Part shown: positions 2,712-51,185 of the stretch, one piece after another | Layout: each line of letters begins with the position of its first letter | Position numbering within the stretch: position 1 is the first letter of the stretch | Virus genome (UHGV): UHGV-0183426 | DNA: 53,584 nucleotides | Strand: one strand, 5' to 3' | From: a virus | The notes under the pieces: model-generated | Database searches by the model: none | Told to the model about the DNA's origin: nothing | The model's input: the letters and a program-made list of their open reading frames with translations, nothing else | Made by a program: the position numbers and the translations under genes

Positions 2712-3060
2712 AAAACCACCCCGATTATTTTTGATTCTCTGTTTCGTTCAGCCTTTCGGCGTGTCCGGCCCTTAGCCAATGTTCTAAGCATTCGTTGCAC
2801 TCGTTACAGCCTCCTTTCTTCGTGCTGCATACATTGCACATTGCACGCATAACGCTTTCTCGTTCATAGTCGTCATGCCATTGGTAATTATCAAAAGGCA
2901 TAATGCTCTCTCCTTTTCAGGTGATTTCTACGCATTTCAGCGCTGCCGGATTTTTAAAGAGCATTTTGTTTGCTTGAAGTATACAAAATGGATACGTGCT
3001 AACAAAGTGTAAAGCGCCATTATGTGACATTCATCACACAATGACGCCATTTTGTAAACT

Positions 3061-3824
3061 TCAGTCCGGCAAAACGCGGTTGAGCGTAGTACGATTGATG
3101 GCCCGGTCGTTAGCTAGGAATACAGCACGGGCGAAGCCACGCGGCGTTAGTGAGCGGATCATCTTTGTTCGCTTTGATTTTCCGCCTAACTTCGCGTGCT
3201 GCTTACTGTCTTCCCATTCATCTGGCATCGGCACAGGACGGAATAGCGGCTGCTTAAATCCATTCCCGCACCAAATACAAGTTTTCTTCGTGTAGGCATC
3301 GCGGTCGGCAATGTATTCCGGGAAAGCAGGATGTTTGTCATCTTCAGGCAGGTAGCCACCGTAAACGCAAGGATTGAAGATAAAATCCGGTTTACGCCAT
3401 AACGTTGACAGTGCGCCAACTGGATTTTCCACCATCCACGGCACGTTATACATATTCGCCAGTTTTTCTACAATTTTTGCGTTATACGCCGCCTTTACCT
3501 GGAAGCCAGGATCTTTTTTCCGTTTATCAGCGAACCAACGAGCGCCTGATACGGCAAGATCATCACACGGAGGAAAGCCCAAGATAATGTCAGGATCTGG
3601 ATAAACAGACAATTCAGGGGAGAACATTACCAGGAAATGGCTGTCAATCCATACGTTAACATATTCAATATTTGGATGAATTATTTTTACCCCGTCATAA
3701 TCCCCGTGATTAGCGCCGTCATAGTTGAAGCAATAGCATTTATACCAGCTTCCGCCCAATCTTTAACGGCGTACCCGCTTCCGTCGTACAGCGACCAGAT
3801 AACCCAATTTCTAAGCCCGCTCAT
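3061..3824 (-). pseudogene. C5-cytosine DNA methyltransferase-like gene split between two frames
   Basis: Small ORF 3687..3824 encodes a motif-I-like N-terminus (VIWSLYDGSGYAVKDWAEAG); ORF 3061..3759 in another frame carries motif IV-like GFPPCDD, motif VI-like VENPVG and motif IX/X-like RSLTPRGFARAVF; no target-recognition domain. Confidence 0.5.
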
Positions 3825-4366
3825 TTTCTACCCTCAAACGTGAAATAGCGGCGCATGATGATAGTAATCACCGTTACCGCTGCCATTTTTGAGATGAATT
3901 GAATAGCTGATATTTCCGGCATAAATGCCATAAACGATAGCGTGGGAAAAATTAACGCATCGCCAATGGCGGACGCTATATTTGCAGGCCAGCGTTTGGA
4001 ATCGAAATCACCAGGTAGAACCCGGTAAACGCCGCCAGAAATAAGCGCACCGGAAACAACCGCGACGAATGACGCGATCGCCACCATTCCGGCGTCGTAA
4101 TTTATCAGCACCGTGATTGCGCCAGCGGCGGCGCATGTTGTAGCCGACCATTTCAGGCCGCCGTCATATAACAGAAGGTCACGGATCATCATATTGACAC
4201 ACACTGCGGCTACCGTGGTGATCGGAATCACCCACGGGCCGCAATGGTTAACAATAAGATTGATAATCACGAAAACGGCGACATAAACGCAGGCTAATAA
4301 CCTGTCAATTGTCACCCTTTCCATTTGGATCGTACCTCTTATCATGAATACATTCCGATCTGTCAA
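3821..4366 (-). CDS. integral membrane protein (speculatively YhhQ/VUT-like transporter)
   Basis: 181 aa, several hydrophobic segments; WPANIASAIGDALIFPTLSF loosely resembles a YhhQ motif; true start probably an internal Met near 4321. Confidence 0.45.
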   Translation of the reverse strand: MTDRNVFMIRGTIQMERVTIDRLLACVYVAVFVIINLIVNHCGPWVIPITTVAAVCVNMMIRDLLLYDGGLKWSATTCAAAGAITVLINYDAGMVAIASFVAVVSGALISGGVYRVLPGDFDSKRWPANIASAIGDALIFPTLSFMAFMPEISAIQFISKMAAVTVITIIMRRYFTFEGRK

Positions 4367-4817
4367 ACTTCAAATCAAGCCAATTAGCGACCTCACCGTT
4401 AAACTTCACAGTAGGAATTATTTTCCCAGGAATAATCGACTGGTCAGGCACTGAAATATCAGAGTAAAGTTTTATCCCTCCGCTGATAGGGAGATCAAAA
4501 ACAGCCTGTTTCTTTCTTTGTTCTTCCTCACGTTCCGTTAATATTTGCTCAGCTTTTAGCGCGTTATAGCTAATTAAATCAATTAGTGTGTCTGTCGGAT
4601 CGCTGTTATTGCTCAAAATGGCTTCTAAACGCGCCTCCTTGAGACAAATTAGCAGATCCCATACATCAAGCGGTGTTAAATTTGCTCCCTTCTTAGCGTT
4701 GTAAATAGTTGCTATTTTTGGCGCTGATTTTTCCTCTTTTTTGTCGTATCCGTTTTGCTTACCTCTTTGCTCTATGGTTTCTGCTGCAAGTCTTAATAAA
4801 TCTGCTGCCTTAGTCAT
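4305..4817 (-). CDS. hypothetical protein (170 aa)
   Basis: ORF track; between dam and membrane protein. Confidence 0.45.
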   Translation of the reverse strand: MTKAADLLRLAAETIEQRGKQNGYDKKEEKSAPKIATIYNAKKGANLTPLDVWDLLICLKEARLEAILSNNSDPTDTLIDLISYNALKAEQILTEREEEQRKKQAVFDLPISGGIKLYSDISVPDQSIIPGKIIPTVKFNGEVANWLDLKFDRSECIHDKRYDPNGKGDN

Positions 4818-5349
4818 TATTTTCGCCTCTCGCGTATAGCTCTTTACGTGTTATCTGCGTGAAAATACATTCATGTCTGCACCGTGGATGCCAGATCAAG
4901 AACAAGCTCCCTTTATTGTTTCCGCTTGCTGGCTTACCAGTAGCGGCATTAATAAATGCCAGCCTCCCGCGCGTTATTAATCGGCATTCGTTTGCCGTCT
5001 CCACGCCGTTCATAAACCAGCTAACAGAAATGTCAGCTGGCAATAACATTACGCATCCGATATGGTTTCTATGGTGTTCAAGCGCCGCCTTATCGACGAA
5101 TGGTCCAGGATTTGAATATGGTGGATTCATCCAGACATACTCACCAGGCATCGCCACCGCTCCCCACGGATAATGTAGCGTGTCCATTTCTTCTGTTATA
5201 TATCGCGGAACTAATGCGTTTTCCTTGTTTGCAGCCACATCCGCGACGAATTCGAATTCACGATCCATACCTCTAAAAACAGGTTTCGGCGTCTGCCATA
5301 GGTCTTTTATTTCTTTCGGCGTGTGGCTGCCGCCGTAATCATTTTTCAT
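4810..5349 (-). CDS. dam: phage-type DNA N6-adenine methyltransferase
   Basis: 179 aa; WQTP...EFVADVAA...WMNPPYS (NPPY catalytic motif) typical of small phage Dam. Confidence 0.8.
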   Translation of the reverse strand: MKNDYGGSHTPKEIKDLWQTPKPVFRGMDREFEFVADVAANKENALVPRYITEEMDTLHYPWGAVAMPGEYVWMNPPYSNPGPFVDKAALEHHRNHIGCVMLLPADISVSWFMNGVETANECRLITRGRLAFINAATGKPASGNNKGSLFLIWHPRCRHECIFTQITRKELYARGENND

Positions 5350-5358
5350 TACGCCCCC

Positions 5359-5592
5359 TTAGAAATAATCCTGATCAGTTCCCCATCGGTTGTTTAAATA
5401 CCCCACCAGCCAGACAAAACGTTCGATACTGATTAGCGGGGCGACCTTGCGATAATGCTTTTCTAATATCAGCCGCGTAGCTTTATCGCTGTAGCCGTTT
5501 TTCTCCACCTCCGCTTTGCAGGCAGAAAGCGCTGCGCGGGCGGCAGCTTTTACGGCGTTAAATTGCGGCTCTGACAGGTTAAATAAAGCCAT
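5359..5592 (-). CDS. hypothetical protein
   Basis: ORF track 5359..5649; start trimmed to internal Met to avoid overlap. Confidence 0.35.
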   Translation of the reverse strand: MALFNLSEPQFNAVKAAARAALSACKAEVEKNGYSDKATRLILEKHYRKVAPLISIERFVWLVGYLNNRWGTDQDYF

Positions 5593-5593
5593 T

Positions 5594-5836
5594 TCATAAA
5601 TAATCAGTAGAATCAGCGAAAAAGAACCCAACAAATACACTAACAGCAATAATGATCCTTAACATATAAAGCGCATCATCAGGTGATGGCATTTCTGGTA
5701 GTTCCCATGTAACAAAAGACACACCGCATAAAATTCCAATAAGAACCGTAGCTATGCATGAGAATACAAAAAAAGAACAAAATAGCCAGCCCATAATGAA
5801 GTCAATAAGTGCACGCATCATTCTAAACGTCCTCAA
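5594..5836 (-). CDS. hypothetical membrane protein (80 aa)
   Basis: two hydrophobic segments. Confidence 0.4.
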   Translation of the reverse strand: MRTFRMMRALIDFIMGWLFCSFFVFSCIATVLIGILCGVSFVTWELPEMPSPDDALYMLRIIIAVSVFVGFFFADSTDYL

Positions 5837-50057: not shown

Positions 50058-50075
50058 ATCACACCTATTAATTAC

Positions 50076-50333
50076 TCATTCTACTTCGTAAAGAGTCGTC
50101 ACCAGTTCGGCATCTACTAACGTGTTGTGATCTGTATAAAACCCGTGGCGCATTGCGAAAGCTATTTCTCCACGCAGCTTCCGCCACATAGGAGTTGATT
50201 CATTCAGATATTTGTTCTCCCTTTTCTCGCTGTATGCCAGTTCATAAAAACGACCACGATTAACATCTTCAATCACGCGGCTGTACTCGCCATCGAGCAT
50301 ACTAACGCCGCGCCATAGTCTGATCACAACCAT
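50076..50333 (-). CDS. hypothetical protein, paralog A2
   Basis: 85 aa; tandem paralog of 49803..50057. Confidence 0.5.
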   Translation of the reverse strand: MVVIRLWRGVSMLDGEYSRVIEDVNRGRFYELAYSEKRENKYLNESTPMWRKLRGEIAFAMRHGFYTDHNTLVDAELVTTLYEVE

Positions 50334-50335
50334 AA

Positions 50336-50635
50336 TTAAAACTCCGCACCAGGTAAGCTACGCGCTTTATGCACAGTGTCCTTTTCAAGCCACATATTAG
50401 AATGCATATCCATTGTGGATATAGCGGCAACTGGCGAATAATTATTTACTGAGTTGATGTGAAATAGTTGATTTCTGGTAAAAATCATATCGTCATCGGT
50501 TATATATAACCAATCGCCGCGCTTACCAACAACAACATGCGATCTGCCTAAGCTGTCTTTAAATTCATAATTGCAGAAAACATCACCTTTAGGCACTTCA
50601 ACAAAACAGCAAGCAATGAATTTGTCGCTTTTCAT
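50336..50635 (-). CDS. hypothetical protein
   Basis: ORF track 50336..50665; start trimmed to an internal Met. Confidence 0.4.
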   Translation of the reverse strand: MKSDKFIACCFVEVPKGDVFCNYEFKDSLGRSHVVVGKRGDWLYITDDDMIFTRNQLFHINSVNNYSPVAAISTMDMHSNMWLEKDTVHKARSLPGAEF

Positions 50636-50829
50636 AATTACACCCTTCTGGTTTGATGGGGCCATCCAGCCCCGTGTTTTATTCTTCTTCGTCTCCTTTA
50701 AATCCTAAACACTCCGCGTATTCGTCAATGCTTAATGCTTCTTCACCTGGTGCCAGTAATTCAAAGTATCTTGCGTACAGTTCGAAAACCCAGGCCGGAT
50801 ATTTAGCGTTAGCGTTCATGGTTTCCCCC

Positions 50830-51102
50830 TTATGCCATGCGTGCGAATTCAAGTGATTTGCATTCGTAGTCTTCCTCTGCCTGCATCACCACGTTGTTAA
50901 TCATATGGTTTGCATCATCGAAGCCGTATATTTTGGCGAATTCATCAGCACCGCCTTCGTGGTCATGCTCTGCGTTCATCGCTTCTACATAGTGGAACTC
51001 AAGATTGTTCAGGTAGGGACTAGAAACGCCGTCCTCTTTTTCAATCAGATCCCAAATTGCATTGAAGCGGGCTTCTGTTTCTTCGTTAATCCAGCGTTTC
51101 AT
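50830..51102 (-). CDS. hypothetical acidic protein (90 aa)
   Basis: ORF track. Confidence 0.4.
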   Translation of the reverse strand: MKRWINEETEARFNAIWDLIEKEDGVSSPYLNNLEFHYVEAMNAEHDHEGGADEFAKIYGFDDANHMINNVVMQAEEDYECKSLEFARMA

Positions 51103-51143
51103 TTTTCTACCCTCCGCATCGTTCTCTCTTCAGCTTCTTTATA

Positions 51144-51185
51144 ACAAAATGGCACCGCCGAAACAATGCCATTTTGTATACATCG
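51144..51185. promoter_or_regulatory. inverted pair ACAAAATGGCA ... TGCCATTTTGTATAC
   Basis: two copies of the recurrent motif as an 11-bp inverted repeat with 12-bp spacer, inside the Q-lysis cargo block. Confidence 0.4.

Follow-up and report, generated by a model that had tools for sequence, protein, structure and literature searches.

In phages with CI repressors of the lambda, 434 and P22 type, the operators form two clusters of three. Phage P1 has an unrelated repressor, C1, which binds as a monomer. Its operators number 22, share an asymmetric consensus, a 17-bp word (ATTGCTCTAATAAATTT), and lie dispersed on scattered promoters of this temperate E. coli phage (PMC8546580). The sites of gp71 in L5 and other Cluster A phages are copies of an asymmetric 13-mer, more than 20 in number, located at promoters and in the short spaces between genes and restricted to one lineage (PMC9283540); this repressor is monomeric and has two domains, one of them dedicated to stoperators, and the orientation of its sites strictly follows transcription and matters functionally.

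Our window, a stretch of 53,584 nucleotides, comprises the complete genome of a temperate coliphage of the mEpimmI (mEp021) group. It contains a 13-base word, CCATTTTGTAWAC, which, judging from sequence comparison, is probably the operator of the window's own lambda-type immunity repressor CI (Rep021 type), often fused to a -10 hexamer and present in about 20 copies. As in the lambda-type systems, sites are found on either side of cI, where they overlap -10 and -35 elements of early promoters at intervals of about 25 bp, and nut sites and an N-like antiterminator are found downstream. Unlike in those systems, only one half-site is well conserved, and the sites are spread genome-wide, including the structural-gene cluster, and not just beside the repressor gene, which is unusual for such phages. 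The many dispersed operators recall P1, but the window repressor is lambda-type and presumably dimeric, and the word derives from a pseudo-palindrome. With L5 the window shares a lineage-specific, asymmetric 13-mer at promoters and intergenic spaces, whereas its orientation is only loosely correlated with transcription and one orthologous site is flipped.

At no more than one mismatch the word occurs 11 times in the whole genome against 0.34 expected, a count reached by none of 100 shuffles, and a PWM with a cut-off of 12 bits yields 23 sites where 1.3 would be expected. No fewer than 17 of the 23 are intergenic, in a genome that is about 90% coding and about 10% intergenic. Copies with at most one mismatch are all intergenic with the sole exception of 42567, within the portal gene; this and the other PWM sites in coding sequence (11571, 24204, 43587) may be chance matches. 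Word orientation is weakly linked to transcription direction: in a hand tally of the site list against the gene map, nine of the 12 strongest sites are co-oriented, while all 23 split 12 versus 11. The original prediction had described a recurrent element at module junctions, and every copy it named was found, displaced by at most 1-2 nt:

2979-2991, minus strand: word copy
3047-3059, plus strand: exact word copy, upstream of the 2979 copy in opposite orientation, 68 bp centre-to-centre
11106-11118, plus strand: word copy
11948-11960, plus strand: word copy
15516-15528, plus strand: exact copy before the DnaB-type helicase gene, adjoining CGGAGG-N10-ATG
28890-28904, minus strand: degenerate partner, CCATTTTGgTATGAT
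30485-30497, minus strand: exact word copy
33996-34008, minus strand: word copy
34025-34037, plus strand: word copy
51140-51152, minus strand: degenerate partner, CCATTTTGTtATA
51169-51181, plus strand: exact word copy

The 18-nt likeness it had drawn between the 3047 and 11948 copies is correct if one indel is allowed. Absent from its list were the copy at 28954-28966 (minus strand) and weaker ones at 6560 (minus), 6586, 10427 (plus), 11079, 11911, 13858 (plus), 22371 (plus), 22429 (minus), 28919 and 30417 (plus). The copies are orthologous among mEpimmI relatives, and at 11 of 11 tested sites conservation of the word exceeds that of its flanks (combined p ~3e-6 in a rank test). The genomes of this group carry 4.0-4.4 word sites per 10 kb, compared with 0.26 in unrelated phages (547 kb). 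The word is thus real, intergenic, selected and lineage-specific, which supports its reading as a CI operator.

The features around cI and at the nut-associated early promoters are the following:

11227..11874, minus strand: cI gene, with HTH_3 and Peptidase_S24 domains; the proposed reader of the word
11946..11961, plus strand: OR1-type site, TTCCATTTTGTAA plus AC(T), with word copy 11948-11960
11911..11923, minus strand: degenerate operator, ACACGTTTTGTGA on the minus strand, on the side of the cI promoter, about 43 nt before the cI start codon
11860..11872, plus strand: operator-like word, CCATTTTGTTTTC
11104..11118, plus strand: OL2-type site, ATCCATTTTGTAT(AC), with word copy 11106-11118
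11079..11091, strand unassigned: OL1-type site, ATACGCCCCGTAA
2978..3005, minus strand: promoter-operator composite, TTGTTA-16-TATACT, its -10 supplied by word copy 2979-2991

The domains of CI, whose closest solved structure is lambda CI (3bdn, E = 1e-19), argue for it as the reader. To its right, the 11948 copy overlaps the -10 TAAACT (11956-11961) of the rightward early promoter, which has a -35 TTGATC (11934-11939) at a spacer of 16 nt and, downstream, a boxA/boxB site at about 12038-12075 published as nutL. The site equivalent to 11911 is a better copy, CGCCATTTTGTGA, in the P0008 lineage, and CCATTTTGTTTTC arises from the opposite strand of cI codons 2-5 (K-T-K-W, the conserved N-terminal arm). 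To the left, the last base of the OL2-type site is the first T of the -35 TTGACT (11104..11099) of a strong leftward promoter, PL, leading to nutR1 and the N-like gene; the OL1-type site overlaps the PL -10 TATATT (11081..11076), 25 bp from OL2 centre-to-centre. OL apparently has two sites, and OR one strong and two weak sites. Fifteen nucleotides downstream of the 2978..3005 composite begins a boxA, TGCTCTTTAAAAA (~2963..2951), published as nutR2, and a consensus CRP site (3023-3038) lies between the 2979 and 3047 copies. The word is the sole word common to the PR/PRM, PL and nutR2-promoter regions, where a shared-word comparison gave no other operator candidate, and this too favours CI as the reader.

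Related repressors place the word in a more classical setting. Four other lineages, prophages of Enterobacter, Citrobacter and other hosts (L178, L179-181, L182, L091/L093), encode MKTKWYDLAK-type CI repressors that share the N-terminal arm of the window CI and have a recognition helix similar or identical to its own. In L178, L182, L179 and L091/L093, cI is flanked on either side by clusters of words spaced 25-26 bp apart, including in L178 ATACATTTTGTAT, ATACGTTTTGTAT and ATACGTTTCGTAT among others, with similar words in the rest. Position and repetition suggest that these are operators, for which we found no experimental characterisation in the accessible literature. They belong to the same word family as the window's (ATAC-N5-GTAT with a T-rich centre and one strong GTATAC half), but their sites are restricted to the immunity region and their weak half is nearer to ATAC. 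In L178 and L179 one operator lays its strong half over the PL -10 (TTTTG|TATATT), and the last base of its neighbour is the first T of the -35. The same geometry holds at the window's PL: 11079 covers the -10, and the 11106 copy, at a distance of 25 bp, has the first T of TTGACT as its last base. The layout is repeated at 6586/6560 and 28919/28890. Both the shared word in cI-flanking clusters of same-subfamily phages and the conserved PL geometry point to CI.

A further argument comes from the syntenic P0008 lineage (L175-L177), whose nucleotide identity to the window is about 67-71%, in a few patches only. Its CI is 55% identical overall to the window CI, with an identical N-terminal arm (MKTKW) and recognition helix (GITKGGLSHWLNGRREPN), and the same word is likewise dispersed at equivalent junctions, so that word and reading head have been kept together. 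We found no lineage in which both helix and word had changed, which counts against the CI reading; all word-bearing lineages found share a similar reading head.

We propose that repressors of this subfamily recognise as their operator a 13-15-bp pseudo-palindrome, ATAC-N5-GTAT, that has a strong half GTATAC/GTAAAC, a T-rich centre and a weak half, which in the window's phage group would have shrunk to nnCC. The strong half would continue into a -10 hexamer (TTTTG|TAWACT), so that bound repressor would cover the -10 of the word's own promoter, and a copy 25-29 bp upstream would adjoin the -35 of that promoter or act as the -10 of a divergent partner. This unit would have been multiplied beyond OL and OR to about 20 junctions: all three nut-associated early promoters, the internal early promoter at 6560/6586, every divergent tail-gene/island junction and the site after the terminator preceding the tail-fibre gene. 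At these places CI would bind the word, the promoters would fire when free of it, and repression would be the outcome. Among the 10 best copies, six show a -35 match of 4/6 or better at 16-18 bp, as against 12% of random positions, and this -35 support fits the proposal. Many copies appear to combine a -10-like hexamer with a suitably spaced -35; for these, both halves of the original prediction, a promoter family or an operator of a phage regulator, would hold, with CI as the probable regulator. Its comparison to an extended -10 is not supported: TG falls at -14/-13, right against the hexamer, instead of -15/-14, and the would-be -7 T is not conserved. Against CI as the reader stand the weak promoter features of some copies (the -35 is missing at four strong ones) and the asymmetry of the word, whose weak half is a specifically conserved CC, not a degenerate ATAC, and not obviously explained by a symmetric dimer. 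Moreover, CI repression of tail-gene and moron promoters is, to our knowledge, not described from lambda-like phages, and morons are usually expressed in lysogens.

Beyond the nut-associated promoters, the early operons contain these sites in addition to the helicase copy:

6559..6598, minus strand: PL-like pair in the early-left operon, two sites 26 bp apart
10425..10439, plus strand: candidate operator-only site, TTACATTTTGTATTA, directly after the N-like gene
13858..13870, plus strand: site before the 376-aa gene, ACATTCTGTAAAC, adjoining CGGAGG-N10-ATG

In the pair, 6586-6598 (ATACATTATGTAT) terminates on the first T of the -35 TTGTGA and 6560-6572 (CCGTTTTGTAAGC) overlaps the -10 of the same promoter. 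The 10425..10439 site reads, on the minus strand, ATACAAAATGTAAAC followed by ATCCGGAG-N8-ATG. The 13858 site varies among relatives, with ACA-N3/4-TGTWWAC kept, while the 15516 copy is the most conserved 13-column window of its alignment. Since 10427, 13858 and 15516 adjoin ribosome-binding sites and leave no usable leader, they are probably repressor-bound sites only, possibly roadblocks within the early operons.

The tail cluster and late region hold the remaining junctions:

22371..22441, both strands: pair between gene J and the tail-fibre gene
28890..28966: island-A junction, three sites, 28890-28904 (minus), 28919-28931 (ATACAATATGTAT) and 28954-28966 (minus, CCATTTTGTTAAC)
30417..30497: island-B junction, 30417-30429 (plus, ACATTTTGTATAT) toward island B and 30485-30497 (minus) toward tail gene M, centres 68 bp apart
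33996..34037: island-C junction, back-to-back pair with a 16-bp spacer
51140..51181: pair downstream of Q, back-to-back with a 16-bp spacer, where two small genes of the same direction leave a 97-nt gap

At the first, 22429-22441 (minus, ATACATATCGTAAAC) directly follows the J terminator, 55 nt upstream of the tail-fibre ATG, and 22371-22383 (plus, CCATTATGTTAAT) is the second site. At island A, 28919-28931 has palindromic halves and overlaps the -10 of the island promoter TTGATC-17-TATATT (28906-28934, plus strand), and 28890-28904 bears the -10 TATGAT for tail gene L and adjoins the -35 of that island promoter. At island C the two copies lie 39 nt upstream of the tape-measure gene (33996) and 46 nt upstream of the first lipoprotein gene (34025, with a -35 TTTACT at a 17-nt spacer). 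In the last pair, which is found in some relatives only, 51140-51152 forms TTGTTT-17-TATAAA 42 nt upstream of an ATG. Copies had been expected at both edges of each opposite-strand island, which proved wrong: only the divergent (5') junction carries them, and the other edge is a terminator without the word (29831-29848, 31586-31606, 35135-35151).

One alternative, possible though on balance doubtful, keeps CI as the reader and differs in mode of action alone: the dispersed copies would mainly be orientation-dependent roadblocks similar to L5 stoperators, where bound CI stops escaped or read-through RNA polymerase and so silences the prophage, rather than promoter operators, although we know of no lambda-type CI that blocks elongation efficiently. 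Copies in short intergenic spaces would suit it, as would those at 10427, 13858 and 15516, only 0-3 nt upstream of a Shine-Dalgarno sequence, and L5 provides a precedent in its 13-mers at promoters and intergenic spaces (PMC9283540). The helicase site is retained at the same place in the P0008 lineage, yet it is flipped there (GTTAACAAAACGTATAC-AGGAGG), and flipped L5 stoperators lose function (PMC9283540); the weak tie of orientation to transcription and the divergent pairing of most junction copies, a promoter-like geometry, also speak against roadblocks. It is improbable that the word is a promoter element only, recognised by the host RNA polymerase with or without a phage-encoded activator or sigma-like factor, with CI not binding and the likeness to relatives' operators reduced to a shared -10 and T-rich spacer. 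The -10-like 3' part of the word (TATACT, TAAACT, TATAAA), the enrichment of -35-like hexamers at 16-18 bp, the placement of copies before genes or after terminators and the lineage specificity expected of a phage-encoded factor would all agree with this. However, the invariant block CCATTTTG would fall at -20 to -13, a stretch with no contacts of this kind by sigma-70, the TG is shifted relative to an extended -10 and -7 is not conserved, and the PL copy lies upstream of the -35 in opposite orientation, exactly at the relatives' OL2 position. The same word also forms classical palindromic clusters around cI in relatives, and no sigma-like or activator gene turned up among those regulators that were scanned, which likewise counts against it.

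Binding by another phage protein, either the 84-aa wHTH protein, whose gene opens the rightward operon, or the antiterminator Q, for which the word would be a binding element, is also quite unlikely. A second reader is plausible in that lambda Cro and CI share operators, the 84-aa gene occupies the cro position, where a true HTH_3 Cro-like gene is found in the P0008 lineage, and Q is of the lambda type (PF03589). The 84-aa protein, put forward as a possible reader in the original prediction, nevertheless has a wHTH of replication-initiator families, and the origin iterons (GGGTCATGA, four copies, 12824-12869) bear no relation to the word; prophage RM9245 has all seven early-region copies intact although its wHTH shares just 39% identity and its replication protein carries a swapped N-terminus. 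As for Q, the PR'-like promoter and the terminator upstream of holin both lack the word. The role in tail-gene expression downstream of the islands that the original prediction gave the word is likewise unsupported: Q with this promoter and terminator could by themselves give read-through. Very improbable, finally, is a word that serves primarily as a recombination linker at module boundaries where cassettes (islands, morons) are swapped between relatives. Conservation falls off immediately beyond the word at 34025, 51169 and 28954, island content varies among relatives while the junction word is retained, and L175 carries two exact copies in tandem immediately before a Rha/ANT gene where L176, which lacks that gene, has one. 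But a 13-bp stretch offers very little length for homologous exchange, the word also stands at OL and OR, where there is no cassette boundary, and matches the relatives' operator clusters; any exchange at regulatory sites kept by conservation would be their by-product, not their function.

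The 53.6-kb window is the complete genome of a temperate coliphage of the mEpimmI group, with ~86-91% identity to MagusPhagus, mEp021, mEp010, mEp013, mEp044, mEp515 and mEp554. As described in 2025, the mEpimmI phages are Nus-dependent and non-lambdoid, constitute a new family-level group with one immunity type, and were isolated from human faeces as frequently as lambdoid phages. The same paper showed that the CI-like repressor Rep021 confers immunity, leaving its operators undefined, and reported an N-like antiterminator, Gp17, active on three nut sites; it describes no promoters, repeats or operators. 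The accessible literature holds neither the word discussed here nor an operator for the group, and string searches returned only unrelated primers. The features to which we refer are these:

~11100 down to Q, minus strand: early-left operon
569-1291: lambda-type Q gene
Continuation beyond Q and through the window end, minus strand: ~25 small genes followed by the lysis, head and tail genes
11227-11874, minus strand: cI
From 12180, plus strand: replication operon
28906-29754, 30494-31581 and 34084-35128: three opposite-strand islands (A, B and C) in the tail cluster

Throughout this genome recurs a word, CCATTTTGTAWAC, with 11 copies at no more than one mismatch in the window against 0.34 expected, a number that no shuffle attained; every copy listed in the original prediction is present to within 1-2 nt. 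A 16-nt PWM with a threshold of at least 12 bits finds 23 sites in the window (1.3 expected), from 2979 to 51181, at least 17 of which fall in true intergenic DNA of a genome that is ~90% coding. The sites at 11571, 24204, 42567 and 43587 lie in coding sequence and are possibly fortuitous, and that at 46140 is a chance match to a ribosome-binding site. Relatives carry 20-22 PWM sites per genome. The word is an asymmetric 13-mer with sharp edges, 10 positions being invariant in the ten best copies and almost no information lying outside the 13-mer. As to symmetry, just the GTAWAC half and the CC are conserved in the window, with perfect palindromic halves at a few sites (6586, 28919). The ten best copies have no -35 at a fixed distance from the word, and a search for a universal partner spacing found none, the spacers measuring 16 bp (twice), 21 bp and 55 bp. 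The distance between paired sites, for which ~24-26 bp would suit cooperative binding, is 25 bp for OL, 26 bp for 6560/6586, ~28 bp for 28890/28919 and 29, 35 or 68 bp in the remaining pairs; in L178, L179 and L182, prophages with a similar CI, it is 25-26 bp. Rfam family and tRNA searches gave nothing overlapping the sites.

MagusPhagus, mEp021 and mEp010 have orthologous copies, intact despite changes in the flanks. Using 14-37 distinct orthologous sequences per site, retrieved via neighbouring proteins and not via the motif, we found the motif to be conserved above its +/-40-bp flanks at 11 of 11 sites and to rank among the most conserved 13-column windows (combined p ~3e-6). TGTA and C1 are almost never altered among orthologues; tolerated changes are C0 to A, A2 to G, C12 to T or A, and changes in the T-tract. 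PWM density reaches 4.0-4.4 per 10 kb in mEpimmI genomes and is 0.26 per 10 kb, the chance level, in 547 kb of unrelated phages that share only a tail-protein homologue; exact copies are absent from those phages and from other coliphage-like contigs. In IMG/VR, back-to-back pairs spaced by 16 bp are almost exclusive to mEpimmI relatives. Conservation among relatives falls abruptly just past the copies at island junctions (34038 onward, 51182 onward and 28967 onward), because of which mosaic breakpoints appear to coincide with operator sites. A common flank, gactCC (other strand ATGGAGTC), is seen at 34025 and 22371 of the window and also in the syntenic relative L175.

The repressor itself combines an N-terminal HTH (PF01381, 5e-13) with a C-terminal, LexA-like S24 domain (PF00717, 4.4e-19), and aligns over residues 15-208 with the lambda CI structure 3bdn (E = 1e-19). 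Homology searching with CI returned no cluster representatives from 90% down to 55% identity; the homologues at 55%, ~50% and 38% all have MKTKW(Y) as their N-terminal arm, together with a similar recognition helix. In these prophages cI is bordered on each side by classical clusters of a pseudo-palindrome of 13 bp, ATAC-N5-GTAT, T-rich at its centre, with 25-26 bp between sites:

Putative operators flanking cI in prophages with a similar CI
L178, one side of cI: ATACGTTTCGTAT, ATACATTTTGTGT, ATACAGTTCGTAT
L178, other side of cI: ATTCCTTTTGTAT, ATACATTTTGTAT, ATACGTTTTGTAT
L182: ATACATATTGTAT, ATACGTATTGTAT, ATACGTTTTGTAT
L179: ATCCGTTTTGTAT, ATACGTTATGTAT
L091/L093: GTATACATAAAGTAG, GTATACA(G/T)(A/T)TTGTCT, GTATACATAACGTAT

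Judged by its sequence, the window word, nnCC-ATTTT-GTAW-AC, is the same putative operator as in these clusters, and a subfamily with one strong, extended half (GTATAC) and one weak half would account for both the asymmetry of the motif and its AC tail. The P0008 lineage (L175-L177) is syntenic with the window, with no more than ~67-71% nucleotide identity, in a few patches. Between the two CI proteins, identity is 55% over the full length (73% for residues 1-62 and 49% beyond them), the arm (MKTKW) and the recognition helix (GITKGGLSHWLNGRREPN) being identical, and the lineage has the same word at equivalent junctions, at 6.3 sites per 10 kb. The word, in such comparisons, tracks the predicted CI reading head. 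A search for covariation, in which head and word would both have changed, brought up lineages with CI at 55%, ~50% and 38% identity; all of them combine a similar head with the same word family, which gives concordance only and no discriminating case. L091-L093, with their distant CI, were considered as members of the phage family and rejected, being unrelated phages apart from CI. We regard the word as the likely operator of CI. The start of cI (11860-11874, ATGAAAACAAAATGG, encoding MKTKW) reads on the opposite strand as an operator-like word, CCATTTTGTTTTC, so that the arm codons double as a weak copy of the proposed CI site; the MKTKW arm is kept in CI homologues down to 38% identity.

PR/PRM, PL and the promoter preceding nutR2, the three early promoter regions, share no other word and hold no other operator candidate, and each of the three nut sites of the 2025 paper is closely preceded by a copy or by a copy-flanked promoter. 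In L178, PL reads TTGCGC-N17-TATATT, then boxA, with one operator over the -10 (ATACGTTTTG running directly into TATATT) and a next operator whose end is the first T of the -35; L179 has the same construction. The window's PL is TTGACT-17-TATATT (11104..11076), with its -10 overlapped by ATACGCCCCGTAA (11079-11091), while the 11106 copy (ATCCATTTTGTAT, 11104-11116) is 25 bp from the 11079 site and ends on the first T of the PL -35, TTGACT. Since the PL geometry is the same as in L178 and L179, the 'antisense' 11106 copy downstream of cI is the predicted OL2. At PR, the 11948 copy (site from 11946) lies over the -10 of TTGATC-16-TAAACT, and on the cI-promoter side there is a degenerate copy (11911-11923), with a better copy at the equivalent P0008 site. 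Between the copies 2979(-) and 3047(+) lies a perfect CRP consensus, TGTGA-N6-TCACA (3023-3038), the sole one in the window (0.06 expected), of which relatives keep the half-sites with a variable spacer; its centre lies ~60 bp ahead of the point at which transcription from the nutR2 promoter is predicted to start, near a class I position. In L175 (10820-10850), the nut site that follows PL has a boxA (GGCTCTTTAACAAAATGG) sharing bases with a reversed, motif-like CCATTTTGTTAAAG; in the window ACAAAATG immediately precedes the nutR2 boxA, and the reverse complement of boxA, TTGTTAAAGAG, is, perhaps by chance, in part like the strong half of the operator.

How CI might act is suggested by the composition of the copies. 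The strong half runs into a -10-like hexamer (TTTTG followed by TAWACT), as at the relatives' PL, forming a putative operator/-10 composite whose -10 would be covered when repressor is bound. Of the ten best copies, six have a -35 hexamer agreeing in at least 4/6 positions 16-18 bp away, against a background of 12%; four strong copies are without a -35. The element had originally been taken for a promoter family or an operator, with an extended -10 in its favour. The operator alternative is retained, for CI, with a predicted promoter core at many sites in addition, and the extended -10 is given up: TG abuts the hexamer at -14/-13, not -15/-14, and the would-be -7 T is a T in just 6 of 10 copies and variable among orthologues, the C at -8 being more conserved.

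The two-operator layout of PL occurs again at 6586/6560, inside the early-left operon, and at the island-A junction. In the latter, a palindromic middle site (28919-28931) overlaps the -10 of the predicted island promoter, TTGATC-17-TATATT, and the site at 28890-28904, directly adjoining the -35 of that promoter, supplies tail gene L with its -10 (TATGAT). The pairs 33996/34025 and 51140/51169 (back-to-back, 16-bp spacer) and 30417/30485 (crossing) would represent divergent promoters sharing operators, and the 22429 site stands between the terminator of gene J and the tail-fibre gene. Copies were expected at both edges of each island; they are present only at the divergent 5' junction, the other edge being a terminator without the motif. 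Moron genes, such as those of islands, are usually expressed in lysogens. We judge it evenly balanced whether most junction copies are CI-controlled promoters. Island C (34084-35128), which follows the 34025(+) copy, codes for two proteins bearing lipoprotein signal peptides (lipoboxes LVGC and LTGC). These are not the Lpp exclusion proteins that the 2025 paper tested, whose genes lie near the tail-fibre genes.

At 10427, 13858 and 15516, GTAAAC stands 0-3 nt upstream of a CGGAG(G) Shine-Dalgarno. As there is no room for a leader, these look like operator-only sites, and they may serve as roadblocks, as in L5. The distant P0008 lineage retains the helicase cassette, its operator being flipped (L175). 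The full start cassette (GTAAAC, 0-3 nt, CGGAG(G), 8-10 nt, ATG) spans 10427-10400, 13858-13889 and 15516-15547, at the ORF after the N-like gene, the 376-aa gene and the helicase gene, respectively. The most comprehensive picture, of an S24-type CI with a genome-wide network of ~20 sites directly silencing the promoters of replication, tail and island genes as well as PL and PR, some sites being roadblocks, is one that we put forward tentatively, as possible but a little short of an even chance.

Other readers and functions of the word were weighed against CI. The 84-aa HTH protein, an earlier candidate, is a replication-initiator-type wHTH (HTH_36, phrog_4617) and not Cro, and we rejected it as the reader since RM9245 has a version only 39% identical, with all seven early-region copies unchanged. 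A binding element for Q, which is indeed of lambda type (PF03589), was rejected because the PR'-like promoter and the terminator upstream of holin are without the word:

48753..48726, minus strand: PR'-like site, GTGAAA-16-CATAAT, no motif copy
~48670-48646, minus strand: hairpin + U5, ~60 nt after the PR'-like site and directly upstream of holin (start 48627)

The hairpin is probably the terminator t5 shown experimentally in the 2025 paper, and the PR'-like site the Q-dependent late promoter. Origin iterons do exist in the window, as four copies of GGGTCATGA at 12824-12869, and are unrelated to the word. The word could serve as a -35 only in the 28954 copy (TTGTTA-18-TAAAAT), the others, by inspection, having no -10 at the right distance. 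Among host factors, we know of no site for IHF, Fis, OmpR, CpxR, TyrR, LexA, sigma-32, sigma-54 or sigma-S that fits all 13 positions.

The probable replication origin is at 12824-12908, inside the 350-aa replication gene, where four iterons of 11 bp, AAAGGGTCATG, give way to AT-rich sequence containing short repeats. In the E. coli prophages H59-H65 the immunity region is common to the window and the match breaks off precisely where the 84-aa wHTH gene starts (window ~12175); RM9245 (L174 21756-22980), the one examined, has the wHTH of 39% identity and a replication protein whose N-terminus differs, in sequence terms a clean module swap of the predicted origin specificity.

As lambda-type immunity, the repressor and operator word of the window are ordinary; what is unusual is the dispersal of ~20 sites, the structural-gene cluster included. 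In classical relatives the same PWM matches the immunity region only, unlike the dispersed sites of the window. To our knowledge, dispersed operators are known only with repressors unrelated to lambda CI (P1 C1, L5 gp71). P1 C1 binds as a monomer, and lambda-type repressors normally dimerise. P1 has 22 dispersed, asymmetric C1 operators (PMC8546580), and Cluster A mycobacteriophages have >20 asymmetric 13-mers acting as operators and stoperators, the L5-type repressor binding as a monomer (PMC9283540). P1 C1 and L5 are functional parallels in their dispersed asymmetric sites, but their repressors are unrelated to the window's CI. Further, L5 sites are strictly oriented with respect to transcription, a rule that does not hold in the window, where by hand tally nine of the 12 strongest sites are co-oriented with transcription and all 23 sites divide 12 to 11, and the orthologue of the helicase site is flipped.

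If CI binds all of these sites, it would be a lambda-type CI with dispersed operators, and ~20 sites all co-evolving with its reading head would lock immunity specificity. Such locking, if true, would explain the single immunity type in a prevalent gut phage group, and also the identical recognition helix in a lineage whose CI is otherwise 45% diverged. What has been gained is a concrete operator word, a map of ~20 predicted sites and a model for PL, PR and the nutR2-associated promoter; with the existing pRep021 plasmid, the operator prediction is directly testable.

Elsewhere in the genome, a ~100-bp segment (46559-46667) encodes a 31-aa hydrophobic peptide, MIASILTFMGGVAFGFIICLFMVIMSMRG, and is ~95% identical in many otherwise unrelated rV5-like myoviruses (FV3, V5, O157 typing phages), with 92% identity to a record named 'Campylobacter phage C5'; it has the look of a small gene moving horizontally.
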